Shown: positions 1 through 20,207 of the stretch, in pieces | Layout of the letters: every line of letters starts with the position of its first letter | How positions within the stretch are numbered: the stretch's first letter is position 1 | From: a virus | Lineage: Duplodnaviria; Heunggongvirae; Uroviricota; Caudoviricetes | Reading direction: 5' to 3' (one strand) | IMG/VR virus record: IMGVR_UViG_2718217714_000002 | Location: 1-20,207 of that record | DNA: 20,207 bases | The notes under the pieces: model-generated | Databases searched by the model: none | What the model saw: only the letters and a program-made list of their open reading frames with translations | What the model was told of the DNA's origin: nothing | Program-made: the position numbers and the translations under genes

Positions 1-225
1 ATGAAGATCGTAAAGGCTGAAGTTTTTGTTACCTGTCCGGGGCGTAATTTCGTCACATTAAAAATCACCACTGAGGACGGTATTACGGGCCTTGGGGATG
101 CCACCCTCAATGGACGTGAGCTTTCCGTGGCCTCTTATTTGCAGGATCACCTTTGTCCGCAGCTTATTGGTCGCGATGCGCACCGTATCGAAGATATCTG
201 GCAGTTTTTCTATAAAGGTGCTTAA
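1..225 (+). pseudogene. rspA: 5' fragment (74 codons) of rspA-like enolase-superfamily dehydratase gene, truncated at a prophage/deletion junction
   Basis: Translation [74 protein letters not shown] matches the N-terminus I recall for E. coli RspA (about 400 aa). The frame hits TAA at 223-225 where the native gene would continue (..KGAYW..). Downstream DNA is phage-like. Confidence 0.75.
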
Positions 226-2765: not shown

Positions 2766-3842
2766 GTGAGTATGGCTAACGCCTGGCTCAGATTATGGCA
2801 TGACATGCCAAATGACCCTAAGTGGCGAACAATTGCCAGGGTGTCAGGGCAGCCAATTGCAACAGTGATGGCAGTGTATATCCACCTCCTGGTGAGCGCG
2901 TCACGAAATGTCACGCGAGGTCACATTGATGTCACGACAGAAGATTTGGCAAGTGCGCTCGACGTGACAGAAGAGGTAATTGATTCAATTTTGCAGACGA
3001 TGCAGGGGCGGGTACTTGATGGTGATTTAATCACTGGATGGGAAAAACGCCAGGTGCTTAAAGAGGACAACGGCAATATTTCGCAAACCGCAAAATCTCC
3101 TGCAGAGCGCAAGAGGGCGCAGCGAGAGAGGGAAAGAAAGCGGGAACAAAATGGCGATTGTCACGGCGCGTCACGAAATGTCACGCACATGTCACGACGA
3201 GTCACGACAGATAAAGATACAGATAAAGATACAGATCAAGAAGATCAAAACACTATGGTCCATGGCGTAAAAAACGCCACGAACCAGGCAGGGGATGTTC
3301 AGACCGTCAATCTTGGTCAGCCAGCAGGCACGACACCGGAAGCCGATTCAGCGTATGCGCTGAAAGCCGATTCGGGCGCTGTGCAGCAGGTGATGACCGC
3401 AAGGGCGGAGCAATCACACCAACTGCAGCAGCCTGAAGCCGATTCCGCCATTCAGCGGGAAGCCGATCGGGTAGTCCCGGAAAACACCGGGCAGTCTGTG
3501 GGACGAGTGGATTATCCGGATGTGTTCGAACAGGTCTGGCGGGAGTACCCGTTGCGTGCTGGGGCAAACCCGAAGAAATCCGCTTTCAGTGCCTGGAAGG
3601 CCAGATTACGCGAGGGGGTGCCACCAGAGGCCATGCTGGATGGCGTGAGGCGTTACGCAAGATACTTGGCGGCTACCGGGAAAACGGGAACGGAATTTGT
3701 TCAGCGAGCGACGACGTTTTTTGGACCGGACCGGAATTTTGAGAACCCCTGGTTGCTCCCGGTAAGCGGCACGAACAACCAGCGTTGTGTGAATCATATT
3801 TCTGAACCGGATAACGAAATTCCGCCGGGCTTCAGGGGGTAA
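2766..3842 (+). CDS. Phage replication initiation protein (replisome organiser, YdaU/O-like) containing origin iterons
   Basis: 358-aa ORF in the replication position. Contains two clusters of 10-bp-phased GTCACG repeats inside the coding sequence, as in lambda O / ori. Acidic DKDTDKDTDQEDQ linker between domains. Confidence 0.6.
   Translation: MSMANAWLRLWHDMPNDPKWRTIARVSGQPIATVMAVYIHLLVSASRNVTRGHIDVTTEDLASALDVTEEVIDSILQTMQGRVLDGDLITGWEKRQVLKEDNGNISQTAKSPAERKRAQRERERKREQNGDCHGASRNVTHMSRRVTTDKDTDKDTDQEDQNTMVHGVKNATNQAGDVQTVNLGQPAGTTPEADSAYALKADSGAVQQVMTARAEQSHQLQQPEADSAIQREADRVVPENTGQSVGRVDYPDVFEQVWREYPLRAGANPKKSAFSAWKARLREGVPPEAMLDGVRRYARYLAATGKTGTEFVQRATTFFGPDRNFENPWLLPVSGTNNQRCVNHISEPDNEIPPGFRG
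2898..2940. repeat. Iteron cluster 1 (four GTCAC[G/A] copies at about 10-bp phasing)
   Basis: GTCACG at 2900, 2910, 2931 and GTCACA at 2920. The 19-mer GCGTCACGAAATGTCACGC (2898-2916) recurs exactly at 3168-3186. Confidence 0.6.
3160..3250. repeat. Iteron cluster 2 (five GTCACG copies) plus adjacent GATAAAGATACA tandem repeat
   Basis: GTCACG at 3160, 3170, 3180, 3191, 3201. Immediately followed by GATAAAGATACA x2 and GATCAAGAAGATCAA. Confidence 0.6.
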
Positions 3843-3882: not shown

Positions 3883-4305
3883 GTGGCAAAAGTTTTTACA
3901 CAAGAAGAGCGGGAAAAAATTAAAGGGCAGGTTCTTGAACTCGTACGCCAGAGTGGGCGCGAGACGTTACGACAACTGGAAGCTAAAACTGGGGCAACAA
4001 GATATCTGATGAGCGTTCTGGCCAGAGAGCTGGTTGCCAGTGGCGATGTATACAATTCTGGCTACGGGTTATTCCCGTCTGAACAGGCTCGTAAAGACTG
4101 GCAAAATGCCCGCAAAAAATTATCGAGGGCAAAGCTGAAGAAACCGGTTGTGGTTGATCCGGACCTTATCTGGTCATTACCTGACGGAGAAATACGTCGC
4201 TACGACAGTCGCCTAAACATAATCTGTCGCGAGTGCCGGAAGAGCGAAGTTATGCAGCGCATATTGTCGTTTTATCAGGGGGATGTTCGGTATTTATTGA
4301 AGTGA
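3883..4305 (+). CDS. Hypothetical protein, possible winged-helix DNA-binding; replication-module accessory
   Basis: 140-aa ORF with GTG start 3 nt after AGGAGG. No family recognised. Confidence 0.4.
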   Translation: MAKVFTQEEREKIKGQVLELVRQSGRETLRQLEAKTGATRYLMSVLARELVASGDVYNSGYGLFPSEQARKDWQNARKKLSRAKLKKPVVVDPDLIWSLPDGEIRRYDSRLNIICRECRKSEVMQRILSFYQGDVRYLLK

Positions 4306-4639
4306 CGAGATTAAAGTGCATTAGTTCAGATGCAAATTGACATTTTGTGGCACAGGGTAGAGCTAGCGTGGTTGTCCGCTTTGTGCCAAGAGCAGACGCT
4401 GGTAATTCGTGCCTAATATACTTCACTTAACTTATATCCCAGCTTTGATACAGATCATACAAATTAAATGCCCCAGTAATTGGCAGGCTGAGTAACTTAA
4501 AACTCCTTAGAATATAGGATGATTTGTATCGGCACTCATTCCACCATGCATTCCGATTAATCCCGCATAGCCAGTTGAACTTTGCTACTCTGTGAGAGGT
4601 AGTACCTTCTATCCAGTGCGGATTTAATTAATGGAATAA

Positions 4640-6643
4640 ATGATTATGAGTGAAAATGATACAACCCCAAAGAAGTCTACAAGCCAGGTTAACAAAGCGG
4701 TATTCTTTACATCTGCTTTGCTAATTTTCCTTCTTGTCGCCTTTGCCGCCGTATTCCCGGATGTCGCCGACAAAAATTTTAAACTACTTCAGCAACAAAT
4801 CTTCACGAATGCCAGCTGGTTCTACATACTTGCTGTGGCCCTGATTTTACTGAGCGTCACGTTCCTTGGACTCTCACGTTACGGTGATATAAAGCTGGGC
4901 CCAGACCATGCGCAGCCTGATTTCAGCTACCACTCCTGGTTCGCGATGCTTTTTTCGGCAGGGATGGGGATCGGCCTGATGTTCTTTGGCGTTGCCGAAC
5001 CTGTGATGCATTATCTTTCGCCACCTGTCGGCACTCCAGAGACCGTTGCGGCAGCGAAGGAAGCCATGCGCCTGACGTTCTTCCACTGGGGTCTGCACGC
5101 ATGGGCAATTTATGCCATCGTGGCGCTGATTCTGGCCTTTTTCAGTTACCGTCACGGTCTGCCTTTAACGCTGCGTTCTGCGCTCTATCCCATTATCGGC
5201 GATCGCATTTACGGGCCTATAGGCCACGCGGTTGATATCTTCGCCGTGATAGGCACTGTCTTTGGCGTTGCAACATCGCTGGGTTACGGTGTATTGCAGG
5301 TGAATGCCGGTTTGAACCATCTTTTCGGCGTGCCCATCAATGAAACGGTACAGGTCATTTTGATCGTGGTCATCACGGGGTTAGCGACGATTTCGGTGGT
5401 GTCCGGCCTGGACAAGGGAATACGCATCCTGTCTGAGCTTAATCTGGGCCTGGCGGTGTTGCTCCTGGCGCTGGTCTTGTGCCTGGGTCCCACTGTGCTT
5501 CTGCTGAAGTCATTTGTGGAAAATACGGGTGGTTATCTGTCGGAACTGGTGAGTAAAACGTTCAACCTTTACGCGTATGAACCCAAGTCGAGCAACTGGC
5601 TGGGGGGCTGGACATTATTATACTGGGGATGGTGGCTTTCATGGTCGCCGTTTGTAGGTATGTTCATTGCACGCGTTTCCCGCGGCAGGACAATTCGTGA
5701 GTTCGTGACTGGCGTGTTGTTTGTTCCCGCCGGCTTTACGCTCATGTGGATGACGGTGTTTGGAAACAGCGCCATCTATCTCATCATGAACCAGGGCGCC
5801 ACTGACCTCGCCAATACCGTTCAGCAGGATGTTGCGCTTGCCCTGTTTAATTTCCTGGAGCATTTCCCGTTCTCTTCCGTGCTGTCATTCATTGCAATGG
5901 CGATGGTCATCGTCTTCTTTGTAACGTCTGCTGATTCGGGGGCAATGGTTGTGGATACTCTGGCATCAGGTGGGGTGGCAAACACGCCCGTCTGGCAGCG
6001 AATTTTCTGGGCATTGCTCATGGGCGTTGTTGCTATTGCCCTGCTGATCGCAGGGGGGCTGAGTGCGTTGCAAACCGTAACGATAGCGAGTGCATTGCCC
6101 TTCTCAGTTATCTTATTAATATCCATATACGGACTGTTAAAAGCCCTGCGTCGGGATTTGACCAAGCGTGAAAGCCTTAGCATGGCGACTATTGCTCCTA
6201 CGGCTGCACGTAACCCAATTCCCTGGCAGAGAAGGTTACGCAATATCGCGTATTTGCCGAAGCGCTCTCTTGTGAAACGTTTTATGGACGACATTATCCA
6301 ACCCGCCATGACGCTGGTTCAGGAGGAACTTAACAAGCAGGGAACGATAAGCCACATCAGTGACGCCGCCGAGGATCGTATTCGCCTTGAAGTCGATTTG
6401 GGCAACGAGCTGAATTATATATATGAAGTGAGGCTTCGCGGGTATAACTCACCGACCTTCGCGCTCGCTGCGCTGGATAATGATGAGCAGCAGAGTGAAC
6501 AACATCGATATTATCGCGCTGAAGTCTATCTCAAAGAGGGCGGCCAAAATTATGATGTAATGGGCTGGAATCAGGAACAGCTGATTAATGACATACTGGA
6601 CCAGTACGAAAAACACCTGCACTTCCTGCATCTGGTTCGTTAA
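4640..6643 (+). CDS. BCCT-family transporter, BetT-like (choline/betaine/carnitine type) with C-terminal cytoplasmic domain
   Basis: 667 aa. Multiple TM segments and BCCT signature region WTLLYWGWWLSWSPFVGMFIARVSRGRTIREF. Overall collinear with E. coli BetT as recalled, including the C-terminal ...ILDQYEKHLHFLHL tail. Confidence 0.85.
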   Translation: MIMSENDTTPKKSTSQVNKAVFFTSALLIFLLVAFAAVFPDVADKNFKLLQQQIFTNASWFYILAVALILLSVTFLGLSRYGDIKLGPDHAQPDFSYHSWFAMLFSAGMGIGLMFFGVAEPVMHYLSPPVGTPETVAAAKEAMRLTFFHWGLHAWAIYAIVALILAFFSYRHGLPLTLRSALYPIIGDRIYGPIGHAVDIFAVIGTVFGVATSLGYGVLQVNAGLNHLFGVPINETVQVILIVVITGLATISVVSGLDKGIRILSELNLGLAVLLLALVLCLGPTVLLLKSFVENTGGYLSELVSKTFNLYAYEPKSSNWLGGWTLLYWGWWLSWSPFVGMFIARVSRGRTIREFVTGVLFVPAGFTLMWMTVFGNSAIYLIMNQGATDLANTVQQDVALALFNFLEHFPFSSVLSFIAMAMVIVFFVTSADSGAMVVDTLASGGVANTPVWQRIFWALLMGVVAIALLIAGGLSALQTVTIASALPFSVILLISIYGLLKALRRDLTKRESLSMATIAPTAARNPIPWQRRLRNIAYLPKRSLVKRFMDDIIQPAMTLVQEELNKQGTISHISDAAEDRIRLEVDLGNELNYIYEVRLRGYNSPTFALAALDNDEQQSEQHRYYRAEVYLKEGGQNYDVMGWNQEQLINDILDQYEKHLHFLHLVR

Positions 6644-6650
6644 CAGCAAC

Positions 6651-6679
6651 ATGCCGCCACAGAGGCGGCATTTATTTAT
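6651..6679 (+). terminator. Rho-independent terminator after the BCCT gene
   Basis: Stem ATGCCGCC (6651-6658) / GGCGGCAT (6664-6671) followed by TTTATTTAT. Confidence 0.6.
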
Positions 6680-6691
6680 CCCGGCTGCAAT

Positions 6692-7984
6692 ATGAGGGAA
6701 TGCAGAATGATTTCACGCTGGAAATGGATGCTGAAGCAGACATTTAAAAAACTATGGTTCAGGGCAACGTTATTCGCAATTGTCGCAATAATAACGGCCC
6801 TTTTATCAATTCTTTTTAAATCAATGATACCTGAGTCGGTTTCCGTGAAGGTTGGTGCGGAAGCAGTCGATAACATTCTGAACATACTGGCATCGAGTAT
6901 GCTGGCAGTGACCACATTTTCGCTGAGCATCATGGTCACAGCCTACGGTTCAGCCACTACTAATGTGACTCCCAGAGCTACTCGTTTAGTCGTTGAAGAC
7001 GTCACCACACAAAATGTACTGGCCACCTTCATCGGTTCTTTTCTCTTCAGTCTGGTAGGGATTATTGCCCTCAATATGGGAGCTTATGGAGAAAGGGGGA
7101 GAGTCATTTTATTCATTGTAACACTGGTTGTCATTGCCTTAATCCTCATCACATTGCTTCGCTGGATACAGCATTTGACCTCTCTGGGGAGGGTTGGTGA
7201 GACAACGGCAAAAGTAGAACAGGCGGCCATCGAAACATTTATTGCGAGAGCAAGAAATCCCTGTCTCGGCGGATATCCATGGCTTGAGAACAATGAACAG
7301 CCGAAAGGAACGGTTGCAGTTTATCCGAAAAAGATTGGCTATGTTGAATATGTTGATATGGTGAAACTCAGCAAGCTGCTGACCAATGATCCCCGTCATG
7401 TATACCTCGTGGCGCAGCCGGGCAGTTTCATACATCCGTCCACGCCAGTTTTGTACCTGAGTCAGGGCCAGGAGTCATCAATCAGCACCGATTTACTTGA
7501 GACGATTATTGTCTCGGATGTACGTTCATTTGCTCAGGACCCCCGATTTTGTCTTAGCGTCATGGCCGAAATAGCCTGCCGAGCCCTTTCCCCCGCAGTG
7601 AACGATCCTGGAACCGCCATTGATGTCATTGGCAGAGGTGTACGTATACTTTCCGCTTACGCGCAGAATAAATCTGATGAAATAGAAGTGAAATATCCTT
7701 CTGTACATGTTGCACCACTTCAGAATAACGATCTACTTGAAGACTTTTTCTCACCTGTTGCGCGCGATGGTGCCAGTATGAGGGAAATTCAGATAAGGGT
7801 CCTTAAAGGACTGTCGATGCTGAGTAAGGGTTGGCCTGGAATTTTTGCTGAAGCCGCACAAACCCTAGCATTTGAAACATTAGAGCATGCTACTCGTGCT
7901 GACCATATAGATTCTGACAGATATCTAATAAAATCAATTTATTATAATTTATTTAGTGGCGAAGATTCTAATAAAAAACCATAG
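6692..7984 (+). CDS. Membrane protein with N-terminal TM helices and large C-terminal soluble domain (possibly DUF2254-like)
   Basis: 430-aa ORF. Hydrophobic helices in the first about 160 aa, then a soluble domain. Likely true start at ATG 6707 (GAGGGA SD 7 nt upstream). Family assignment is from memory of the architecture and is unverified. Confidence 0.55.
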   Translation: MRECRMISRWKWMLKQTFKKLWFRATLFAIVAIITALLSILFKSMIPESVSVKVGAEAVDNILNILASSMLAVTTFSLSIMVTAYGSATTNVTPRATRLVVEDVTTQNVLATFIGSFLFSLVGIIALNMGAYGERGRVILFIVTLVVIALILITLLRWIQHLTSLGRVGETTAKVEQAAIETFIARARNPCLGGYPWLENNEQPKGTVAVYPKKIGYVEYVDMVKLSKLLTNDPRHVYLVAQPGSFIHPSTPVLYLSQGQESSISTDLLETIIVSDVRSFAQDPRFCLSVMAEIACRALSPAVNDPGTAIDVIGRGVRILSAYAQNKSDEIEVKYPSVHVAPLQNNDLLEDFFSPVARDGASMREIQIRVLKGLSMLSKGWPGIFAEAAQTLAFETLEHATRADHIDSDRYLIKSIYYNLFSGEDSNKKP

Positions 7985-8266
7985 TTGCGGAGCAAGCGAT
8001 ACGGTTGTTGGCAAGTCAAGGGCAAAGCATTCGCGTGAGAGTGGGCGTCTGCTTTGTGCCAGGAGCGGAAGTTGCCAAGAGAACTCTTGCAAAGGTATGA
8101 TAACGTAGGTGCTAAATAATCATGAACCATAATAAATTAAAGGTTTTTAAGTTGACTCTATGGCGTTTCTTTTGCATGATGATTTTTTATTTATTATATA
8201 AAGCTTAAATATACATAATATTTAGCTTCATTTTTTTAGGTATTTTAAAGATTTAGAGGAATGTGA

Positions 8267-9610
8267 ATGGCTACTTATGCTTCTTATTTACCAGAATCAC
8301 AAATTATCACTTTGTGCAAGGATTTCCCAGCGTTTACTGATCCTGAAAAATTAGATGGATTCATTAATCCAGAACAGTTTGGCGTGTTTTTTCATGAGTG
8401 GATTCATTTTCTTCACAATATTTCCACAATTAATGGGTTTTCTATTTTTTGCACGCAAAACATCCTGTGGTCTAATTTTCGCTGGGCAATGGACAATCAG
8501 GATGTATGTCTTGGTTCAAATGACATGGATCCAGCACATATCGAATCAAACAAAAATTTTCTCAGTTACATTCGTTCCAATAGGAGTCCGCATAAATGTA
8601 ACTTACCTTATTATGTAAAAGTAAACGACTTGTATTTTGAGGATGCAATAATCCATGACATGGAGGTTGCTGACGGTAGTGTTATATGTACATCATTAAT
8701 AAAGTGTAGAATTTCTCATTCTGAAAACAAATACGATCTAGATTTAGGCGTGCTTGAAATACTTGAATCCGCAGCTTTTATGCTTGAATGTAAGTGTATT
8801 AATGCGATGAATGGCTTCCCTCAAGAGGCACCCTTTTATCCGTATCATACTATCAAGGGCTTAGCAGCGAAAATTGCTCCGTCATTAAATGATGAAGATA
8901 TTATTTGTTGTATGTTAGCTTCTTTGCAATCTAATAACCCTCCCCAAGTATTATTCAATCTACTACATAAATGTGAATTATTACATTCTGATTGTAGGTA
9001 TGAACATCTAGTGGCGGAGGTGAAAAAACAATTAAGCGAACAAGATCAAATAATAAGCGAGTCACTTAATCAAATAATTCAAATGATTCCTGTTGATGAA
9101 CCGATGGGAAACTTTATCAAGCTTACTCTTAACAGAATAAGTAACAATTTGAACTATAGAAAGCAAAAACCGTTTTTTGAGTTAGATATAATAAAAAAAA
9201 TAGCAGAAAAAACTGAGTTTATGAATGAAGTAATACAGAAATTCGGTGGTTGCACTATCATCCAGGTAAGACATGGAGATGATAATGAACCACAGCGTGA
9301 TATTATGTATGACTTTTGCTTACCTGAAAATAATGATTCAATTTTATTTGGTTCGAAAATGCTACGCGCTTGTTTTCACTTTATATTTATTCACTTTAAA
9401 CTTTCTGGTGAAATCATGAAGACAGAAGAATTAAATATTTCGCCGCGTAATAAATGCCCATTTTATACTGTTTGCTGTGCATCAATTCGAGCTAATAATA
9501 GTAATATCTGCGCTGAATCCCCTTGGAAATCAATGTCTATTGATGACAACAAAGGTTGTTATTATGCAGCAGCGATTAAAGCTACTAACCCACCAGTTTT
9601 GCCGGATTAA
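8267..9610 (+). CDS. Hypothetical 447-aa protein with N-terminal HExxH motif (possible zinc metallopeptidase-like), in an AT-rich island
   Basis: Long ORF with AGAGGA SD. FFHEWIHFLHN at residues about 41-51. Cys-rich C-terminal part. Markedly AT-rich by eye relative to neighbours. No family recognised. Confidence 0.6.
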   Translation: MATYASYLPESQIITLCKDFPAFTDPEKLDGFINPEQFGVFFHEWIHFLHNISTINGFSIFCTQNILWSNFRWAMDNQDVCLGSNDMDPAHIESNKNFLSYIRSNRSPHKCNLPYYVKVNDLYFEDAIIHDMEVADGSVICTSLIKCRISHSENKYDLDLGVLEILESAAFMLECKCINAMNGFPQEAPFYPYHTIKGLAAKIAPSLNDEDIICCMLASLQSNNPPQVLFNLLHKCELLHSDCRYEHLVAEVKKQLSEQDQIISESLNQIIQMIPVDEPMGNFIKLTLNRISNNLNYRKQKPFFELDIIKKIAEKTEFMNEVIQKFGGCTIIQVRHGDDNEPQRDIMYDFCLPENNDSILFGSKMLRACFHFIFIHFKLSGEIMKTEELNISPRNKCPFYTVCCASIRANNSNICAESPWKSMSIDDNKGCYYAAAIKATNPPVLPD

Positions 9611-10156
9611 GAATAGTGTTCTATCTGATAAATATAAAATATTTAAGGTCAGGTCTGCTTATCGCTCAAAGCGGACTAGAAGGTTAGCTTGCGTCGGACT
9701 TGGCGTATTTAAAGAAGTACTGGTGGTGACTGGTTGTTGTGTTCCATTTCTACAGAACAAAATCACAGAAACTATACCCAATAGTTGTATCTCATCAATG
9801 ATGAGACAGCCTCATATTTATCAGGACTGGTGTACGTCCAATACAGGAGGTTGTCGTGCTGGTTCTCAAATGTGCGCTGGCTATTGCAGCTGTAATGGCA
9901 ATTTATTGTCTTGCTGTTGTTCTTATGGATCGCCTTTCTGATTGATTTTATATTGGCGAGGTAACGGGAGTTAAGTAGAATGGCTGCGGGTGCTTGAGGC
10001 TATCTGTCTCAGGCATGAACACCAAAGGCAGATAGAGAAAAGCCCCAGTTAACATTACGCGTCCTGCAAGACGCTTAACATTAATCTGAGGCTCAATCTA
10101 TGAACGGCAAATCTAGGTTAGCCTCTTACGTGCCGAAAGGCAAGGAGAAGCAGGCT

Positions 10157-10312
10157 ATGAAGCAGCAAAAGGCGATGTTAATCGCCCTGATCGTCATCTG
10201 TTTAACCGTCATAGTGACGGCACTGGTAACGAGGAAAGACCTCTGCGAGGTACGAATCCGAACCGGCCAGACGGAGGTCGCTGTCTTCACAGCTTACGAA
10301 CCTGAGGAGTAA
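10157..10312 (+). CDS. hokD: Hok/Gef-family type I toxin (HokD/RelF-like, 51 aa)
   Basis: MKQQKAMLIALIVICLTVIVTALVTRKDLCEVRIRTGQTEVAVFTAYEPEE matches Hok-family sequence as recalled. AAGGAG SD upstream. Overlapping upstream mok-like frame from 10100. 5' tac-like (about 9985-10000) and 3' fbi-like (about 10350-10376) complementary elements. Confidence 0.85.
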   Translation: MKQQKAMLIALIVICLTVIVTALVTRKDLCEVRIRTGQTEVAVFTAYEPEE

Positions 10313-12189: not shown

Positions 12190-12532
12190 TATGTATGAGG
12201 TTTTAGACCGCTGGGGGGCATGGGCTGCAGCAGAAAATAGTGGTGTCGATTGGCAACCGATAGCAGCGGGCTTCAAGGGGCTTTTACCTCATGGCAAAAA
12301 GTCACGGATTCAGTGTGATGATGACGAAGGCATTATGATAGACAGTTGTGTGGCTCGGTTGAGAAGGTATAAACCAGAGGAATATGAGCTCATCATAGCC
12401 CACTTTGTTATTGGTATCTCATTACGCACTATTGCCAAAAAGAGAAGGTGTTCAGATGGCACGATTAGAAAGGAATTACAAACTGCAATTGGTTTTGTAG
12501 AGGGTATTACGAGCGTTATTGCATGTAAATAA
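12179..12532 (+). CDS. Late-gene antitermination protein Q (short Q, quuD/quuQ-like)
   Basis: MGRDMYEVLDRWGAWAA...IAAGFKGL... aligns with the N-terminus of DLP12 QuuD as recalled (MRDIQMVLERWGAW...AAGFKGL). Start chosen at ATG 12179 (AGAGG SD 9 nt upstream); the track ORF starts at 12170. Confidence 0.7.
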   Translation: MGRDMYEVLDRWGAWAAAENSGVDWQPIAAGFKGLLPHGKKSRIQCDDDEGIMIDSCVARLRRYKPEEYELIIAHFVIGISLRTIAKKRRCSDGTIRKELQTAIGFVEGITSVIACK

Positions 12533-12537
12533 AAGCT

Positions 12538-12559
12538 AAAAGCCACCGTAGTGGCTTTT
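12538..12559. terminator. Bidirectional rho-independent terminator between Q (+) and the converging minus-strand cargo operon
   Basis: AAAAGCCAC-CGTA-GTGGCTTTT. T-rich 3' flank on both strands (AGCATTTT on plus, AGCTTTTATTT on minus). Confidence 0.6.
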
Positions 12560-12565
12560 AGCATT

Positions 12566-12715
12566 TTAGGATTGTGCAGGTAATGTTTTGTTCAATTTAG
12601 TAAAGAAGTTAGATTGGCTTGTTACAGTACGTCGACTCTTTCCAGAAGTACTCAACTGAAAGAAATCATTGATGCTTTTGGGTTGAGTTCTTTCATAGGC
12701 TTGCTTAAGTGACAT
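12566..12715 (-). CDS. Candidate small ORF (49 aa) immediately downstream of the proteasome-like gene
   Basis: My own translation of the reverse complement: MSLKQAYERTQPKSINDFFQLSTSGKSRRTVTSQSNFFTKLNKTLPAQS. Possible GGGGA SD about 5 nt upstream. Below the ORF-track size cut-off. Coding status unproven. Confidence 0.25.
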   Translation of the reverse strand: MSLKQAYERTQPKSINDFFQLSTSGKSRRTVTSQSNFFTKLNKTLPAQS

Positions 12716-12738
12716 GTGTTCCCCTTGTCTATTTGTTG

Positions 12739-14022
12739 CTATGACCGTGAAAAGTAGTGATGGTTCAGTTCTTTTGCAAAATAGTGCTTACGTTTAACCC
12801 AGATAAAACCATCAGCTTTAGAAATGATTGCAACATCTATGGGGCCTCCCACTGTTTCAGTATCATCGGAGACCTTGCGCTTGAAAGCGGTTAAATTTAC
12901 TAATGATTCAGCCATATAAGCTAAATCTTGCTTGGGTAAAAACTCGATCATATTTACGACTTTGTCAACATAGTTTTCTCGGACAAAGCTATCAATACGC
13001 CCCTTGCAATCGGAAACAGTTCTGCGCACTACATCAACTATAGCATCCTTGGCTCCTTCGATATCTGAAGTGGGCACCAAATCTGTGATTACTGAATCAA
13101 TACCATCAAGTAAATCGCCGATAGAACGTTGATACTCAGCATGAAGATTTTGGATAAGATGTGAACTAGCTCCTTGCATGAAAGCAGAAACTTCATCCTC
13201 TTGCGCAAAGGGAGTCACGCCGCAATTAGGAGTGATGCAGCACTTGTCAGCATCTGTGGTTTTCCTTATTTTATCATTAAAGAAGCCACAAACTTCATAT
13301 GATAATACTTTAGGGTAATAGTCTTTATCGCCATAACCTGCAATCACAATCCCAGAGACGGAACCAATATCACTTTGCTTGCATATCATAGCTGCCAATA
13401 CATCACTAACTGCTTTTGTCAACTGTGGAGTTATGGATATTGAATCAAAGTCACTAAACTTTTGAGCAATGATGCGTTGGGTAATTGATGAAGCATAGGT
13501 TTGGGCTGCTTGTTCATCATCCGGAGTAAAACCATCAAAGTAATTAATATCAGATAATTTTGTAAGGAGATCGTTGCAATAATTCGTGAGGTCTGTAACA
13601 AATTGATTCTTATCGAAGTTAACGAGATATGTTGGTTCGAGACCTTCAGAAAAAGCATCAACAAGCATGCTGAATACAATCTCGCTCAGGAAGTGATAAA
13701 GATGAGCCTCACGCATACCTGGTGTGATGATTGATTTAGCTGACTGTAGATAATTGAAGAAATCCTCAGCATATTCCTCCAAAGAGTCAAAACATTTAGA
13801 GCCTAAATCCTTTCTATAAGCCTTAATGATAAGCTCCCATGGAGCTGTGCAGAGATCACCAGTTCCATATACCATCAAACCTACAGGATGATGTTTAGTG
13901 AGAGCGAAAAGCTTTTCAGCGCCATTATAGATTTTATGTTTGCCGCCTCCAGAAATCGTTACAGCTGAATCTGCGGCTAAAGCTACTGCGGTCTTGTTAA
14001 ATACGGCTATTTCTGCTGTCAT
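12739..14022 (-). CDS. Enlarged proteasome beta-subunit/HslV-like (Ntn-hydrolase fold) protein, 427 aa
   Basis: N-terminus M-TAEIAVFNKTAVALAADSAVT...EKLFAL...GLMVYGTGD aligns by eye with HslV and archaeal 20S beta (Thr1, Asp17, Lys about 33-36). C-terminus VGGPIDVAIISKADGFIWV matches the beta-subunit SGGMIDVAVITRKDGYV motif. About 200 extra residues lie between. AT-rich, no canonical SD. Confidence 0.7.
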   Translation of the reverse strand: MTAEIAVFNKTAVALAADSAVTISGGGKHKIYNGAEKLFALTKHHPVGLMVYGTGDLCTAPWELIIKAYRKDLGSKCFDSLEEYAEDFFNYLQSAKSIITPGMREAHLYHFLSEIVFSMLVDAFSEGLEPTYLVNFDKNQFVTDLTNYCNDLLTKLSDINYFDGFTPDDEQAAQTYASSITQRIIAQKFSDFDSISITPQLTKAVSDVLAAMICKQSDIGSVSGIVIAGYGDKDYYPKVLSYEVCGFFNDKIRKTTDADKCCITPNCGVTPFAQEDEVSAFMQGASSHLIQNLHAEYQRSIGDLLDGIDSVITDLVPTSDIEGAKDAIVDVVRRTVSDCKGRIDSFVRENYVDKVVNMIEFLPKQDLAYMAESLVNLTAFKRKVSDDTETVGGPIDVAIISKADGFIWVKRKHYFAKELNHHYFSRS

Positions 14023-14132
14023 TTTTTACATAGGGTTTATATGTTGTGTAATGAGAAAAATACAAAAAAATTAACGCGTACGCAAAAATTCTTGTAATCT
14101 GTTAAGAGTGGTTACTTCGCCACACAGCTTAA

Positions 14133-14157
14133 ACCCGCCGTCGAGCGGGTTTTTTTG
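14133..14157 (+). terminator. Plus-strand intrinsic terminator-like hairpin in the divergent promoter region
   Basis: ACCCGC-CGTCGA-GCGGGT followed by TTTTTTTG. No plus-strand gene lies upstream of it. Confidence 0.45.
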
Positions 14158-14254
14158 TACCTGTAAACTTGGTGCAGTACGGTAAACACGCTGGTGGTAG
14201 TGAATACTGACTTTTTATCTTGCTGGCTTTTTAGACAAGAGTTATTGGTATGTC

Positions 14255-14473
14255 ATGTTAACCAGAAGGGAAAAAGACATGCTAAAACAGCAAGATATGA
14301 CAGAAACGGCGAAAGTTGTTTTTAATGAATTAAGCATCGAACCGGCAACAGTCGGGGAGATTGCACAAAACACATACCTTTCACGCGAACGCTGTCAGTT
14401 AATACTGACCCAGTTGGTTATGGCGGGGCTGGCAGATTACCAGTTCGGCTGTTACAGACGTCTTCAGCAATGA
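14255..14473 (+). CDS. Small hypothetical protein (72 aa), possible DNA-binding
   Basis: ORF upstream of and co-directional with the methyltransferase. Helix-rich segment ATVGEIAQNTYLSRERCQLILTQL. Start uncertain (alternative Mets at 14279 and 14297). Confidence 0.4.
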   Translation: MLTRREKDMLKQQDMTETAKVVFNELSIEPATVGEIAQNTYLSRERCQLILTQLVMAGLADYQFGCYRRLQQ

Positions 14474-14622
14474 AGGGCTTTTAATTTGTGAAAATGGGCG
14501 GCTGGTGGGTGTTGGTAGCACCTGCCAGCCATTCGCTCATGCTTACTGGTCACAAGCGAACCACGGCCCACTGCTTTAGCGCAAAAGCAGAGTGAGCCTA
14601 CCAGAGTTACGCTTACTGATCC

Positions 14623-15669
14623 ATGAAAAATACTGTAAAAATAAACAGTGTTGATTTAATCAACGCTGATTGCCTGCATTTTATTCAGTCCCTGCCTGAT
14701 GATTCCATTGACCTGATTGTTACCGATCCGCCTTACTTCAAGGTGAAACCCAACGGTTGGGACAATCAGTGGAAAGGGGACGAAGATTACCTTAAGTGGC
14801 TGGACCACTGTTTGGCCCAGTTCTGGCGGGTGTTGAAACCTGCCGGAAGCCTTTACCTGTTCTGTGGGCATCGCCTGGCATCTGATATCGAAATCATGAT
14901 GCGTGAACGCTTTAATGTGCTGAACCACATTATCTGGGCGAAGCCGTCCGGACGCTGGAACGGATGCAACAAGGAAAGCCTGCGGGCGTATTTCCCGGCA
15001 ACAGAGCGCATTCTGTTTGCTGAACATTATCAGGGGCCATACCAGCCCAAAAATGACGGCTATGCGGCAAAGGGGCGCGAGCTTAAACAGTGCGTCATGG
15101 CCCCGCTGATTTCTTACTTTCGTGATGCGCGAGAATCTCTGGGGATAACATCAAAACAGATAGCGGAAGCCACCGGAAAGAAAAACATGGCGTCACACTG
15201 GTTTGGTGCCAGTCAGTGGCAGTTGCCGAACGAGGCTGATTACAAAAAACTTCAGGCGCTGTTCGCGCGTGTTGCAGCAGAAAAACACCAGCGCGGGGAG
15301 CTGGAAAAGCCGCACCACCAGCTGGTCAGCACATACAGTGAACTGAACCGGCAATATGCCAGCCTGCAGGAGGAGTATAAATCCCTGCGGCGTTATTTTT
15401 CCGTATCAGCTGCTGTTCCGTATACGGATGTCTGGACGCACAAGCCTGTGCAGTATTATCCAGGCAAACATCCCTGTGAAAAACCGGCAGATATGTTGCG
15501 TCAGATAATTACTGCCAGCAGTCGCCCCGGTGATTTGGTCGCTGATTTTTTTATGGGGTCTGGCTCAACAATAAAAGCAGCACTTTCACTGGGACGTCGC
15601 GCAATTGGCGTGGAACTGGAAGAAGAGAGATTTAATCAGACTGTAACTGAAATAAAAAATAATCGTTAA
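14623..15669 (+). CDS. DNA methyltransferase, beta-class (N6-adenine or N4-cytosine), orphan
   Basis: DLIVTDPPY (motif IV) near the N-terminus and FFMGSGST (motif I, SAM-binding) near the C-terminus. No restriction endonuclease candidate nearby. Confidence 0.8.
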   Translation: MKNTVKINSVDLINADCLHFIQSLPDDSIDLIVTDPPYFKVKPNGWDNQWKGDEDYLKWLDHCLAQFWRVLKPAGSLYLFCGHRLASDIEIMMRERFNVLNHIIWAKPSGRWNGCNKESLRAYFPATERILFAEHYQGPYQPKNDGYAAKGRELKQCVMAPLISYFRDARESLGITSKQIAEATGKKNMASHWFGASQWQLPNEADYKKLQALFARVAAEKHQRGELEKPHHQLVSTYSELNRQYASLQEEYKSLRRYFSVSAAVPYTDVWTHKPVQYYPGKHPCEKPADMLRQIITASSRPGDLVADFFMGSGSTIKAALSLGRRAIGVELEEERFNQTVTEIKNNR

Positions 15670-15739
15670 ATATGCATTTAATAATTTCTTTATTTCATAA
15701 AAAATAAAAATATATACGTATATTTACAAATCTTGATAT

Positions 15740-15767
15740 GATTTTCCATTGAAAAGAGAGCTGGCAT
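15740..15767 (+). promoter_or_regulatory. Candidate sigma70 promoter for the tRNA pair
   Basis: TTGAAA (15740-15745), 16-nt spacer, TAATAT (15762-15767), about 70 nt upstream of the first tRNA. Pattern match only. Confidence 0.3.
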
Positions 15768-15837
15768 TATTAATATCGGTACCCGGTTCCGAAGGGGATG
15801 TAAGCGCGGTCATTTTTATTTCTCTTGAGGAACCTGT

Positions 15838-15913
<76 letters not shown>

Positions 15914-15916
15914 TAT

Positions 15917-15991
<75 letters not shown>

Positions 15992-16349
15992 GAGAAACAA
16001 GCCTTATTGTATCGTTGCACTGGCGTATTTTTTATTGCGTGGGAGCAGGTTGTTTTTAAAAGGCATTCTGTTTTCTGGCTGTGATTTGAGGTCGGTTATA
16101 GCCACAGTGCTGTTTTTTACACCACTGGAATGGTGCATTATCGGTGGAAATTGAGCATTTCCTGACAGGGGCCGATGATGCACTATCCCGGTGTTGTAAA
16201 TAACACTACAGAGGTGTTCCTCAGTGCGAGGGTGGTTTATGTAACTGTTTAGCGGGAAACCACAGTATTCATGGAGAGATGGATACTTCGGGGGGCACCC
16301 GACACCTCTGTTTTTCTACTACAAAAATGATTCATCTCTGGCATTTTTC

Positions 16350-16376
16350 AACCGCCGTTCCGGGCGGTTTTTTTTA
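16350..16376 (+). terminator. Intrinsic terminator in the tRNA-to-lysis intergenic region
   Basis: AACCGCC-GTTCCG-GGCGGTT followed by a T9 run. Confidence 0.5.
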
Positions 16377-16697
16377 TTCTGAACTCAGAAAAGAATACAC
16401 GGGCATTGATATTACCCGTGTGGCAAGGCCATGAAAGCCAATAATGAACTGAGCGCAAAAAAAGCGCGGCTGTCGGATTAACGCCGCGGGACAAAGTCCG
16501 TGAAGAAGAATAAGCATCAGTCTCCTCCAGGAGACGATTTGATATTACTAAGCTTTAAAAATGGTTTAAACCCCCGGATTAACCTTAATTTCAGATAAGC
16601 TTTATTTCATTTTCTCCGAGCCACGTCAGGCGCATATCACATCAGATAACACCACATAAAAGGTATCTGCGGGTGCCTTTCACGGGGTGTTTTTTTA

Positions 16698-16720
16698 CGG
16701 GCCGCTGGTGGCCCTTTTTT
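16698..16720 (+). terminator. Intrinsic terminator immediately upstream of the holin gene (tR'-like position)
   Basis: GGGCC-GCTGGT-GGCCC followed by TTTTTT, then AGGAG SD and ATG at 16739. A second T-run hairpin-like element lies just upstream (about 16680-16696). Confidence 0.5.
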
Positions 16721-16738
16721 ATTTACAGGAGAAAAAGT

Positions 16739-17130
16739 ATGTCTGAACCCTTATCCGGTTCCGGCACGGCTGCAGCGCTCGGCGGGGCGACGGTGTACGG
16801 GCTGTTTACCGGAACGGATTTCGGGATTGTGTTTGGTGCCTTTGCCGGGGCGTTATTTGTGGCAACGATGCCGCAGGCGCTTTCAGCCTGGCGTGTGCGG
16901 CACATTTTCTGGTGTCGTTCATTGTTGGTGTGCTGGGGGCAGAAGTTCTGGCATCCTGGCTGGTAAAGCATACAGAGTTTGACGGTGCACCTGTCGACGC
17001 ATTGTGTGCAGTACTGGTGTCAGTGGTGTCGGTGAAGATTCTCTCGTTCATCCACCAGCAGGATATTGCATCACTGGTGTCCGGTCTGTTCTCCCGTCTG
17101 CGGGGCGGAGGAGGCGGCAATGTTAAGTAA
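16739..17130 (+). pseudogene. Holin-like gene split by an apparent frameshift at a T4 homopolymer (16905-16908)
   Basis: Frame A (16739..16966) encodes a Gly-rich TM N-terminus and then W/C/R-rich nonsense. Frame B (16912..17130) encodes a TM-rich continuation SFIVGVLGAEVLASWLV.... Adding one T to the T4 run joins them as ...RVRHIFLVSFIVGVLG... into one holin of about 130 aa. Confidence 0.5.
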
Positions 17131-17398
17131 CCTTCCCGGATTGCTGAATGTGGCGTTATGCACGGTTATCGTGCTGACGCTCTTTTTTTATCGTCGTCGT
17201 GATTCCAGACATAAACCGTTGATGTCATGGCTGGCCTGGCTGCTGATGCTGCTTTATGCCTTTGCACCACTCAGTTATCTGTGCGGTCGCCCGTTAGCGG
17301 CGAACTGGCTGGCGGTGGGGCTTAATCTGCTGTTCTGCGTGTTGGTTATTCGCGCACGCGGGAACGTTTCAAAAATCTTTGTATTACGAAGACGCTGA
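17120..17398 (+). CDS. Small membrane protein of the lysis cassette (holin/antiholin-like)
   Basis: 92 aa, MLSNLPGLLNVALCTVIVLTLFFYRRRD... with at least two hydrophobic helices. GGAGG SD. Start overlaps the upstream stop and its stop abuts the endolysin ATG. Confidence 0.5.
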   Translation: MLSNLPGLLNVALCTVIVLTLFFYRRRDSRHKPLMSWLAWLLMLLYAFAPLSYLCGRPLAANWLAVGLNLLFCVLVIRARGNVSKIFVLRRR

Positions 17399-17399
17399 T

Positions 17400-17528
17400 A
17401 TGAAGTCGAAAGATGAAATTTTTGACGAAGTTCTGGGAAAAGAGGGCGGTTACGTCAATCACCCGGATGATAAAGGCGGACCGACAAAATGGGGTATTAC
17501 GGAAAAAGTCGCCCGCGCTCACGGATAA
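17400..17528 (+). pseudogene. Endolysin 5' fragment (glycoside hydrolase family 108-type N-terminus), truncated after 42 codons
   Basis: MKSKDEIFDEVLGKEGGYVNHPDDKGGPTKWGITEKVARAHG then TAA. The GGYVNHPDDKGGPTKWGIT signature is the conserved start of GH108-type phage lysozymes. The downstream sequence switches to tail-fibre coding DNA. Confidence 0.65.
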
Positions 17529-18129
17529 CGGGAAATACACCGCACAGAATGCAACGACAGCACAGAAAGGGATAGTACAACTCAGCAGTGCGACAAACAG
17601 TACTTCCGAGTCACTGGCGGCAACGCCAAAAGCAGTTAAGGCCGCGTATGACCTGGCTAACGGGAAATACACCGCACAGAATGCAACGACAGCACAGAAA
17701 GGGATAGTACAACTCAGTAGTGCGACAAACAGCACTTCCGAGTCACTGGCGGCAACCCCAAAAGCGGTCAAAGTGGTAATGGATGAGGCTCAGAGCAAAT
17801 TATCAAAGGATGAATTTTTAAGAAGTATCAGTTCGCCGAAACCGGATATCGGCAGTGTGGTTATGGCAGCTTTTTTGGGAGTAGCGGAAGGTGGAGTTTT
17901 AATGCGCCTGAGTCGTGGACAACCATGCCCGGGAAAAGCACTTGCGCCGGTGGAAATAGTAGTGGGAGGCGTGACAGGAGCAGGCACAATGAAAGGGGAG
18001 GCAACGTTTGTCATTGGCAGAACGAATACATCGGCATTTCCCGGAGTGTATCAGTCTCTGGGGGGAGATGGTCTTTATACCACCAACGGAAAGGAAGCGT
18101 ATATAGGATTATTTGTGCGGGTCGGGTGA
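17521..18129 (+). pseudogene. 3' fragment of side tail-fibre gene (tail-fibre repeat region plus C-terminal domain)
   Basis: Contains two copies of the tail-fibre repeat GKYTAQNATTAQKGIVQLSSATNSTSESLAATPKAVK, as in Stf proteins. The first about 36 codons of the 17413 track ORF are out-of-frame overlap with the endolysin fragment. Confidence 0.65.
17527..17769 (+). repeat. Tandem direct repeat, 132-bp unit, about 1.8 copies (coding tail-fibre repeat)
   Basis: AACGGGAAATACACCGCACAGAATGCAACGACAGCACAGAAAGGGATAGTACAACTCAG... at 17527 and again at 17659. Also produces the mirrored minus-strand ORF 17346..17771. Confidence 0.8.
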
Positions 18130-18135
18130 CAGAGT

Positions 18136-18702
18136 ATGCAGATAAAAAATATAAGAAATGCCATGTTTCTGGAGGATGGTGCTGTATATTGTGAAGTGCT
18201 TTTGGAGGGGCAGGAGGTACATCTACCTTATACCGCTGTTGAGAATGATGTTGCGGAAATGGGTAAACAGGTCTGGCAGGAACTGCAAAGCGGGAAGTGG
18301 GGCGGAATAGCCCGGTTTACCGTTACGCCTGAACTTATTGCCGCAGAAAAAGAGGCTAAAGTGCGTGAGATCGAAGTATGGCGTCAGGAACAGGAGTCCA
18401 TGTCGTTCATGCTGGAATGGAAAGGTCACAAATGGAATGCTGGTCCGGTTTCGCTGTCCCGCCTCTTACCAGTGGTAATGGCGGCGAAATCAGGAGCTGG
18501 CAGAGAAACAATTGTTTGGGGAGATGGAGAGAATACGCCAATCGTCCTGACGATGCAGGAACTGGAAGAACTTGCGGCAGTAATGGCACGGGCACAGGCC
18601 GATCGCAATGACGAGATTTATCGTCGTCAGCGGGAGATGAAGGAAGAGCTGAATAATCTTGATGATTTACGCTCAATCCGAGCGTTTGACGTTACGCAAT
18701 AA
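18136..18702 (+). CDS. Putative tail-fibre assembly / chaperone-like protein
   Basis: 188-aa ORF immediately downstream of the tail-fibre fragment, the usual Tfa position. Sequence not confidently matched to a specific Tfa family. Confidence 0.4.
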   Translation: MQIKNIRNAMFLEDGAVYCEVLLEGQEVHLPYTAVENDVAEMGKQVWQELQSGKWGGIARFTVTPELIAAEKEAKVREIEVWRQEQESMSFMLEWKGHKWNAGPVSLSRLLPVVMAAKSGAGRETIVWGDGENTPIVLTMQELEELAAVMARAQADRNDEIYRRQREMKEELNNLDDLRSIRAFDVTQ

Positions 18703-18923
18703 AAAAAACACTGATATGCAAGCCCCTTGTAAAAATATTGAACAGGGATGCTTTGAGTTGAATTGGATTTACATGGGGGCACCTTGGGGCATATATGGGA
18801 CATAAAAAGGCCTCAGACAAACAGCAAAATCGAGATCAGGAGTTTTTAGAAAAAATACAACTATCTGAAAAAACTTAGAAAACGCCCAAAAATCCATAGG
18901 ATGGTAAAAAATATCTATGAATT

Positions 18924-20207
18924 ATGGATTTCCAGTTATATTCGCTCGGCGCAGCGTTGGTGTTTCATGAAATATTTTTTCCTGAATCATCAACGGCAAT
19001 GGCGTTAATTTTGGCAATGGGAACCTACGGTGCAGGTTATGTGGCGCGTATTGTCGGAGCATTTATTTTCGGCAAAATGGGCGACAGAATAGGGCGTAAA
19101 AAAGTGCTCTTTATTACCATCACCATGATGGGGATCTGTACCACCTTAATTGGTGTGTTACCGACCTATGCACAGATTGGTGTTTTTGCCCCCATCTTGC
19201 TGGTGACGCTGCGTATTATTCAGGGGTTGGGTGCAGGTGCGGAAATTTCCGGTGCCGGTACGATGCTGGCGGAATATGCACCAAAAGGTAAGCGCGGAAT
19301 TATCTCCTCATTTGTAGCTATGGGAACTAACTGCGGAACCTTGAGCGCAACGGCAATCTGGGCCTTTATGTTCTTCATTCTCAGTAAAGAGGAACTGCTG
19401 GCGTGGGGATGGCGTATACCGTTCCTGGCGAGCGTTGTCGTGATGGTCTTTGCTATCTGGTTACGTATGAATCTGAAAGAAAGCCCGGTCTTTGAGAAGG
19501 TTAATGACAGCAACCAACCCACAGCAAAACCTGCACCTGCTGGTAGCATGTTCCAGAGCAAATCCTTCTGGCTGGCAACAGGGCTGCGTTTTGGTCAGGC
19601 GGGTAACTCCGGGTTAATTCAGACTTTCCTTGCAGGCTATTTAGTGCAGACGTTATTGTTTAACAAAGCAATTCCAACAGATGCATTGATGATTAGTTCG
19701 ATTCTCGGCTTTATGACCATTCCGTTCCTTGGTTGGTTATCCGATAAAATTGGTCGCCGGATCCCGTATATTATTATGAATACCTCCGCGATTGTGCTGG
19801 CATGGCCAATGCTTTCTATCATTGTAGATAAAAGCTATGCCCCGAGCACCATTATGGTTGCACTGATTGTGATTCATAACTGTGCGGTGCTGGGATTATT
19901 TGCTCTGGAAAACATTACCATGGCAGAAATGTTCGGCTGTAAAAACCGCTTTACCCGGATGGCCATTTCTAAAGAAATTGGTGGTCTTATCGCTTCCGGT
20001 TTTGGTCCTATCCTGGCGGGTATTTTCTGCACCATGACGGAATCCTGGTATCCGATCGCCATTATGATCATGGCATATTCAGTGATTGGTTTAATCTCTG
20101 CGCTGAAAATGCCAGAAGTGAAAGACCGTGATTTAAGTGCGCTGGAAGACGCTGCGGAAGATCAACCGCGTGTTGTAAGAGCTGCGCAACCTTCCAGAAG
20201 TCTGTAA
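18924..20207 (+). pseudogene. ydfJ: MFS (metabolite:H+ symporter family) transporter gene lacking its 5' end; ydfJ-like prophage-interrupted gene
   Basis: 427-aa ORF begins MDFQLYSLGAALVFHEIFFP..., i.e. inside the conserved (E)W(Y)DF region that normally follows TM1. In-frame TGA three codons upstream. Matches what I recall of E. coli ydfJ, which is interrupted by Qin. Confidence 0.7.

Follow-up and report, generated by a model that had tools for sequence, protein, structure and literature searches.

The question raised by this locus is what the short repeats flanking its cargo genes are, and whether they have a part in the turnover of those genes. The locus lies in the IMG/VR virus record IMGVR_UViG_2718217714_000002 (Caudoviricetes), whose positions 1 to 20,207 were analyzed as one stretch of DNA of 20,207 nucleotides, hereafter called the window. 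This stretch represents a degraded Rac/Qin-like prophage: its left part encodes a cI/cro-like switch, homologues of YdaS and YdaT, a replication gene and a DUF977 gene, while hok/sok, DUF968, RusA and Q are found to the right of the cargo slot. The interval between DUF977 and hok is occupied by three genes, coding for a BCCT transporter, a DUF2254 membrane protein and an orphan of low G+C content with a HExxH motif. A preliminary description, made from the sequence alone, had placed this cargo, correctly, between the replication module (DUF977/lygF) and the hok region. It had also noticed a near-identical 16-bp motif on either side of the first two genes, and had proposed that the two copies either mark the boundaries of an acquired cassette or act as an operator shared by the BCCT and HExxH genes.

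The first of these proposals is supported: the repeats mark cassette boundaries. They are copies of a 24-nt inverted repeat, which occurs in two types, L and R, differing in the core. The outer half of each site was shown to stay with the phage backbone, and the inner half to move with the cargo. Cargo is exchanged between phage genomes, including Rac-like and P2-like ones, via breakage and joining within the core.

Structure of the sites

The two 16-bp copies, GCTTTGTGCCAAGAGC (4378-4393) and GCTTTGTGCCAGGAGC (8051-8066), are located exactly where they had been described, on the same strand, and are identical at 15 of 16 positions. Similarity does continue beyond them, although over 37 ungapped nt with 78% identity (4365-4401 versus 8038-8074) and not over about 45 bp; the inverted repeat noticed near the second copy is also present (GGCAAAGCA at 8021-8029, TGCTTTGTGCC at 8050-8060). 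Taken alone, the 16-bp pair is only weakly above chance: at least 2 matches with at most 3 mismatches were found in 4 of 100 shuffled sequences. The repeat is non-random, but 16 bp is too narrow a definition: the motif forms the middle part of a longer unit, an inverted repeat of 24 nt (GTCYGCTY-N8-RAGCRGAC). This pattern matches the window three times (4374-4397, 8047-8070 and 9653-9676), well above the chance frequency (0.11 matches expected), and none of the shuffled sequences equalled this count. The third site had been overlooked because its centre is different, only the arms being common.

Both types have a 9-6-9 layout. The L prototype is GTCCGCTTT-GTGCCA-AAAGCGGAC, the R prototype GTCCGCTTT-TCGCTC-AAAGCGGAC: the arms are the same, and the R core is close to the reverse complement of the L core. 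The inverted arms, GTCCGCT(TT) and (AA)AGCGGAC, span 7–9 bp around a core of 6–7 bp. In the window, sites A and B are centred on TGTGCCA and belong to the L type, while site C, which shares their arms, is centred on TCGCTCA and belongs to the R type. Site A (4374-4397, plus strand; GTCCGCT-TTGTGCCAAG-AGCAGAC) contains the first 16-bp copy, and site B (8047-8070, plus strand; GTCTGCT-TTGTGCCAGG-AGCGGAA) the second. The reverse complement of site C (9653-9676, plus strand; GTCTGCT-TATCGCTCAA-AGCGGAC) equals site A at 20 of 24 positions.

The arms are kept as sequence, and not merely as pairing. When 160 L and 140 R sites were tabulated, the opposed positions 4 and 21 of the L sites turned out to be CG in 101 cases, CA in 29, TG in 22 and TA in none: uncompensated C·A and T·G oppositions are common. 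Only at positions 8 and 17 is some covariation seen (CG 50 and TA 39, versus TG 21 and CA 19). Single-strand folding of the window copies is weak (-1.5 to -5.3 kcal/mol), and only the plus strand of site C exceeds shuffled sequences (z = -2.5). A terminator scan found none at the three window sites, and no T tract follows any of them; a reading of the sites as intrinsic terminators was accordingly dropped. Weak folding, missing T tracts and sequence-kept arms, taken together, are more easily reconciled with a recombinase site of duplex arm-core-arm form than with a stable hairpin or a terminator. No Rfam family matches the sites, the only hit of the scan being sok, and a literature search by the exact site sequence returned no relevant paper.

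Cargo slots in other phages and in E. coli

Two exact-pattern scans of IMG/VR were performed, and about 230 loci among the matches were listed; the IMG/VR counts of this section refer to these listed loci. The dominant layout, L-cargo-R, is found in 76 of them; arrays in which two L-cargo-R units are separated by about 18 nt, and L-L-R arrangements like that of the window, are also present. The outermost site might be seen as half of a decayed R-spacer-L unit, but this is unproven: an nhmmer profile of 19 such units matched only half units in the window. The 172 intervals between sites fall into 122 unrelated clusters, and at least 100 unrelated cargos are bracketed in this way, a large share being genes of anti-phage defense. 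Two contexts prevail, a Rac-like one, between DUF977 and hokD (about 45 loci), and a P2-like one, between genes G and FI (about 45–49 loci); minor contexts adjoin umuC-like genes, tail-fibre genes, DUF968 or ddrB-ParB genes. The Rac context hosts 16 cargo families and the P2 context 25, with identical borders and unrelated cargo.

In the about 45 Rac-like loci, the DUF977 gene is kept upstream of the first L site, and the hok module downstream of the last R site. Their counterparts in the window are the lygF/ydaW-like DUF977 gene (3883-4305, plus strand; Pfam DUF977, 2.2e-28), the last left backbone gene before the hotspot, and the first right backbone module (9988-10312, plus strand), composed of a sok antisense RNA (9988-10162; Rfam sok, 110 bits) and a hokD-like gene (10100-10312; Pfam HOK_GEF). 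Alignment with related prophages reveals that similarity breaks at the sites, and that other genes occupy the slot. In phage Tritos and the Rac-like phages related to it, agreement with the window stops at 4397, the end of site A; another gene follows, and agreement resumes at the R site that precedes hokD. Similarity to phage 204576 also ends at 4397. The slot between both flanks is never empty (0 of 83 loci), the shortest gap being 894 nt in the P2 context and 1491 nt in the Rac context.

Cargo representatives include PD-T7-1, PD-T7-5, mad3, PDC-S06, PDC-S15, UG17 and other reverse transcriptases, CBASS cyclases, GmrSD, HEPN and TIR proteins. Given these defense genes, the slots qualify as defense-gene hotspots, which carry other genes as well, such as the transporter of the window. 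In 39 of 109 cargo families the longest open reading frame (ORF) is on the opposite strand.

Within a collection of 5426 complete E. coli genomes, L-type sites are present in 3565, at up to 7 places per genome (median, 1). The listed matches fall outside annotated genes, except for K-12 ydfV. The latter ORF contains the L-like site of the K-12 Qin prophage (1645981-1646004); flxA lies between this site and an R-like one (1646972-1646995), in an order which, relative to hokD, is inverted with respect to the window. On E. coli plasmids of the collection, L-type sites occupy 186 places: in plasmid pDETEC13 (NZ_CP116116.1; survey locus L355 5001-5030), for example, a site adjoins a DUF1778/GNAT toxin-antitoxin pair and hok/gef genes. 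The analogy previously drawn with trkG of Rac does not hold: the K-12 Rac prophage has no such site near trkG, where the sole match, with 3 mismatches, is at chance level.

Relation to the P2 fun(Z) region

According to a review, inverted repeats around P2 fun(Z), enclosing variable cargo, were described by Nilsson, Karlsson and Haggard-Ljungquist 2004 (Mol Biol Evol 21:1), who proposed site-specific recombination. The patterns derived from the window find the same element there: P2 fun(Z) is bracketed by an L site, GTCCACTCTGTGCCAAAAGCGGAC (15335-15358), and an R site, TTCCGCTTCTCGCTCAAAGGAAAC (17432-17455), and a BLAST search with the L consensus matches P2, P2-EC48 and Peduovirus P22H4. Neither the element nor the idea of site-specific recombination is therefore new. 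In the Z-region of P2-EC48 (GenBank AJ512681.1, from the same laboratory), the annotated 'left inverted repeat' (repeat_region 3..115) ends exactly at an L site (92-115), and three cassettes are present, with R sites at 1402, 2713 and 3777, after ORF1, ORF2 and ORF3, respectively. The 'right inverted repeat' of this entry (3166-3256) lies inside ORF3 and coincides with no R site; its coordinates look misplaced.

To the inverted-repeat-bounded slots first noticed at P2 fun(Z), the window adds another example, situated in a Rac-like prophage and carrying a BetT-like transporter. Site sequence and variability of the cargo between the repeats are shared with the P2 Z-region. The P2 slot, however, lies between G and FI, that of the window between DUF977 and hokD of a Rac-like lambdoid prophage; the window, moreover, contains two cassettes, split by an internal L site, and one of its cargos is a metabolic transporter, not an exclusion gene. 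Elsewhere in P2, the TO region (tin/old) contains no such sites; the attP core and the gpA nick site, considered as possible relatives, were discarded, their sequences being unrelated.

Partition of the half-sites

Half-sites were tabulated by counting once every combination of context and cargo family. At the left junction, positions 1–8 read GTCCGCTT, the outer half of site A, in 15 of the 16 families of the Rac context; of the 25 P2-context families, 22 have C at position 8, and none has T. Positions 16–24 of the same junction vary with the cargo, with 11–13 forms per context. The right junction features the opposite arrangement: among the 22 Rac-context families, 19 have AAGCGGAC, the outer half of site C, at positions 17–24, and among the 25 P2-context ones, 23 have AAGCAGAC there, while positions 1–9 vary widely with the cargo.

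Three cargo families are common to both contexts: they retain their inner halves, while the outer halves are swapped to those of the new backbone, and all 6 of the informative cross-context joints fall in the central 7 nt. 'Wrong' left joints, where a Rac flank is combined with C at position 8, or a P2 flank with T, are found 0 times in all of IMG/VR, against 39 and 34 canonical ones sampled. For 'wrong' joints on the R side, the figures are 44 canonical to 0 and 42 to 0. Since the outer half is fixed by the backbone and the inner half is tied to the cargo, the exchange is located within the central 6–7 bp.

The two cassettes of the window

Cassette 1 (4398-8046, plus strand), enclosed between two direct L sites, contains the BCCT gene (4640-6643), a terminator-like hairpin (6651-6671) and the DUF2254 gene (6692-7984). 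The gene products are of the kinds anticipated by the preliminary description. The 667-aa BCCT protein scores above the NCBIfam BetT subfamily cut-off (751.8 versus 695 bits), and its full-length identity to K-12 BetT is 42%; the second product is a membrane protein of the DUF2254 type. The two genes form one cargo, and the transporter is a BetT paralogue, probably importing choline or betaine; the sites are not regulatory elements of this pair. In 10 of 10 sampled copies, the 3.65-kb interval lies between two L sites. BCCT and DUF2254 are found in 318 complete E. coli genomes, which match the window up to 8069 and then diverge: the pair is followed by a module coding for a LysR regulator, a gamma-glutamylcyclotransferase (GGCT) and an MFS transporter, which ends at the R site before hokD. 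In no complete E. coli genome was the LysR-GGCT-MFS cassette seen directly after DUF977, so that the BCCT and LysR cassettes appear to travel together. The BCCT cassette is often broken by insertion sequences (IS100, IS3, ISKpn26, IS903B, ISVsa5).

Cassette 2 (8071-9652, plus strand; G+C 31–39%) is composed of a promoter-like site (8072-8101) and the 447-aa orphan (8267-9610), whose HExxH motif, also recognized before, is HEWIH at residues 43–47. The module including this gene (8047-9677) is 99.7% identical to copies in P2-like prophages, where it lies between L and R sites, in the slot between the tail-fibre assembly gene G and the sheath gene FI. The orphan matches no Pfam, NCBIfam or PADLOC family; because of this, and of its low G+C content, it is a candidate defense gene.

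The joint between the two cassettes falls in site B. In other genomes the BCCT module ends at 8069, and the HExxH module begins at 8047; site B is thus a hybrid, whose 5' half goes with cassette 1 and whose 3' half goes with cassette 2. After BCCT the 5' half is always GTCTGCTT, whereas positions 16–24 differ with each of five downstream cassettes. The BCCT-HExxH joint is absent from all complete E. coli genomes of the collection, which makes site B a rare recombinant joint. At the other end of cassette 2, the hokD module shared by many genomes starts at 9653, the first position of site C. Breakpoints in related genomes are thus in agreement with the repeats as borders of an acquired cassette, with the correction that the second copy is at the same time the left border of another one.

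A putative site-specific exchange

The explanation favored for these data, with a probability of about 0.6, is a site-specific exchange catalyzed by a putative recombinase within the core of two heterospecific sites. In temperate enterobacterial phages a cargo slot is flanked by L on its left side and by R on its right, and the DUF977-hokD slot of the window holds two cassettes, in the order L-BCCT/DUF2254-L-HExxH-R. The exchange would be catalyzed in trans by a putative site-specific recombinase, most likely of the tyrosine type, as suggested by the arm-core-arm layout. Because the L and R cores differ, L would pair only with L, and R only with R: under these conditions a slot would be refilled by a double exchange and not emptied, which would amount to replacement without excision.

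Several observations weigh against this reading. No integrase or transposase domain is found in the 20 larger ORFs of the window. A recombinase is not enriched among the 109 cargo representatives either, Phage_integrase not being among their top families. The precise L x L deletion joint of cassette 1, looked for in relation to the common BCCT-LysR arrangement, occurs in 0 of the 5426 complete E. coli genomes; its absence, with L sites in direct orientation, indicates that the sites are rarely active or do not delete. The supposed heterospecificity of L and R is deduced solely from their anatomy, and the crossover position between contexts is directly informed by only 3 cargo families (6 joints). 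Finally, within one phage family, cargo could be swapped by ordinary homologous recombination in the conserved flanks.

Occurrence beyond enterobacteria

When the L pattern was run against 185,579 species-representative genomes, at least 120 loci were obtained (survey loci L230-L349). The pattern carries about 40 bits, and about one chance match is expected per 1.2e12 positions. Non-Enterobacterales among the listed matches include Xanthobacteraceae, Pseudolabrys, Hyphomicrobiales, Methyloceanibacter, Nitrosomonadaceae, Acidobacteriota and others, often with the exact 24-mer GTCCGCTTTGTGCCAAAAGCGGAC. In these genomes the exact 24-mer sits between ordinary genes, for example those coding for a P-type ATPase, an ABC binding protein or NadA (e.g., L245, L325, L306, L275). 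Several copies of the L pattern are found per 8 kb, mostly co-oriented: in 24 of 35 loci with at least 3 sites, all are on one strand. This distribution suggests the existence of a conserved protein recognizing the site.

Two arrangements were observed around these copies. In one metagenome-assembled genome (MAG) of Xanthobacteraceae (L241, L257, L293, L305), the copies are part of a composite repeat, in which three hairpins share the stem ATGTCCGCTTT...AAAGCGGACAT and have the loops GGGTCA, ACCCCC and GTGCCA, in fixed order and about 45 nt apart; several contigs of this MAG end at such repeats. In Nitrosomonadaceae and in a Roseivirgaceae MAG, the hairpin is immediately preceded by a conserved stretch of about 130 nt, ...GGGGGTATTATTGGGGGTAC...TTCGATTYCYGCCGCCCAAGATTGAGT (L249, minus strand, 3272; L275, 1954 and 7794; L282, minus strand, 482). 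The stretch is neither a tRNA nor a member of any Rfam family, and may represent one end of an element targeting the hairpin. No relevant tRNA or tmRNA was found beside the Nitrosomonadaceae copies.

A broader proposal, advanced here only tentatively, is that L and R form a natural heterospecific pair for one trans-acting putative recombinase, that they support a natural form of recombinase-mediated cassette exchange (RMCE) among unrelated temperate phages, and that this system, or its ancestor, is responsible for the dispersal of the identical 24-mer, a multi-copy and co-oriented intergenic repeat, in Alphaproteobacteria, Nitrosomonadaceae and other phyla. The proposal is possible rather than probable.

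Alternative explanations

The main rival, unlikely in our judgment but to be taken seriously, assigns to the sites another primary role, as intergenic palindromes similar to repetitive extragenic palindromic (REP) sequences: insulation or stabilization of transcripts, or binding of nucleoid proteins. On this view, cargo would change hands only incidentally, through short-homology recombination between the conserved 24-bp stretches, by RecA or by annealing through phage RecET/Red. The identical 24-mer is, in fact, multi-copy between housekeeping genes in Xanthobacteraceae, Hyphomicrobiales, Nitrosomonadaceae and others, often in clusters of 2–3 hairpins with the same stem and differing loops. 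In these loci the copy number typical of REP sequences and of bacterial interspersed mosaic elements, tens to hundreds per genome, is apparently reached; this is not the case in E. coli, where the element is not genome-wide. As to the recombination step, RecET is encoded by Rac-like prophages, and, according to the account in PMC4042001, homologous recombination was proposed by Mirold et al. 2001 for the analogous sopE cassette. A block of identity of 7 bp is, however, very short for RecA or annealing pathways. Also against recombination by homology are joints which are confined to the central 7 nt and never fall in the equally long arms, as found in 6 of 6 cross-context joints and in the lack of 'wrong' joints in IMG/VR. 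A role in termination, in turn, does not agree with the weak folding and the missing T tract.

An improbable alternative is that the sites act as single-stranded hairpins, recognized by an HUH enzyme (a RAYT or IS200-type Y1 transposase, or a rolling-circle Rep), which would nick in or beside the loop and move the segment between hairpins. The layout of stem and conserved loop, the covariation at positions 8 and 17, the REP-like co-orientation in other phyla and the R-spacer-L doublets, similar to REP doublets, are in line with this hypothesis. Y1 transposases, however, cut outside the hairpin, and whole hairpins should travel, while here each site is split. Moreover, the hairpins of hybrid sites are poorly stable, CA/TG mismatches being common, and the nick site of P2 gpA is of no help, as it bears no relation to the sites. 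A phmmer search with K-12 RayT against all ORFs of the about 350 fetched loci gave no match, a weak test, limited to these loci.

The shared-operator idea is very hard to sustain: both L copies of the window do lie upstream of a plus-strand gene, and a promoter-like hexamer pair begins 2 nt past site B, but this promoter belongs to cassette 2 and moves with it into P2-like phages, site A precedes the BCCT start codon by about 240 nt and lacks an adjacent promoter match, one site is downstream of the HExxH gene, and sites flank at least 100 unrelated cargos on both sides, whatever the gene orientation, in two unrelated phage families.

Comparison with known recombination systems

Site-specific exchange at heterospecific sites, the reading preferred here, has several counterparts among described systems. 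The pdif modules of Acinetobacter plasmids consist of resistance modules flanked by XerC/XerD sites. They are similar to the present slots in that modules are bounded by short sites of the arm-6 bp-arm type, in opposite orientation, are found in different replicons and do not contain the recombinase; the present sites, however, are carried by phages, not plasmids, and their arms, compared by eye, do not appear to resemble E. coli dif. Integrons, too, are arrays in which imperfect palindromes (attC) stand between promoter-independent units, with the crossover inside the site, a part of which is carried by each unit, and diverse cargo. Here, in contrast, cargo is found in either orientation and with its own promoters, and each unit has two site types. 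The attC consensus RYYYAAC...GTTRRRY is absent from the 160 L and 140 R sites, which show GTCCGCT/AGCGGAC arms instead, and there is no adjacent intI (checked as Phage_integrase in the 20 larger ORFs of the window), attI or Pc.

Engineered RMCE, with heterospecific lox or FRT sites, is close in design: arms are identical and spacers different, which would allow replacement and not excision, and would fit slots which are always occupied. It is, of course, an artificial system, of which the window would contain a natural equivalent.

The crossover core of the R64 shufflon sfx sites, recognized by the Rci tyrosine recombinase, is 5'-GTGCCAA-3' (PMC4176322). The same heptamer forms the centre of site A (T-GTGCCAA-G; 4380-4388), while site B has GTGCCAG. 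The sfx sites, however, are asymmetric, and their conserved 12-bp right arm, TCCGGTACGTGG, is unrelated to AAGCGGAC; in the surveyed sites the core is followed by (A/G)AGCGGAC. No rci gene is found nearby, and no integrase-family ORF is among the 20 larger ones of the window. The match may be coincidental.

A precedent for cargo crossing phage families is the sopE cassette, common to the P2-like SopEPhi and to lambdoid Gifsy-like prophages (Mirold et al. 2001, as reported in PMC4042001). It is a moron shared by unrelated phages and, in SopEPhi, is found in the same G-FI slot. Canonical L and R sites are missing around it there; all that is present, near 27778, is a degenerate R-like stretch, TTTTCGCTCA. 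In SopEPhi (survey locus L354 25968-28139) the sopE cassette is followed by a fragment of a DNA-invertase gene.

Other features of the window

Past the Q gene, the remaining part of the window (12532-20207) is that of a prophage without lysis and head genes. It contains a 427-aa orphan on the minus strand (12739-14022), a DNA methylase (14623-15669), tail-fibre repeat and DUF4376 fragments (17413-18702) and an MFS metabolite/H+ symporter (18924-20207), which extends past the end of the window.

Implications

The variable slots of P2-like phages and of other prophages are major reservoirs of anti-phage defense genes. In Rousset et al. 2022 (PMC9122126), where two variable P2 loci are mentioned and the cos-adjacent one is analyzed, the mechanism of the rapid gene turnover in variable phage slots is stated as open. 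The window shows bordering sites of the P2 type at work in a lambdoid prophage, with cargo also found in another phage family, and the BetT-like transporter indicates that the slots carry metabolic genes too. A rule is offered for the exchange: it takes place in the core, with an outer half fixed in the backbone, an inner half borne by the cargo, and two core types with identical arms. The hotspot becomes, in this way, a defined substrate for a recombinase screen, and the signature of the sites a simple means to find cargo slots and new defense genes. If the slots are indeed the product of a natural RMCE, the identity of the enzyme would explain the turnover of phage defense hotspots, and could provide a new recombinase tool.

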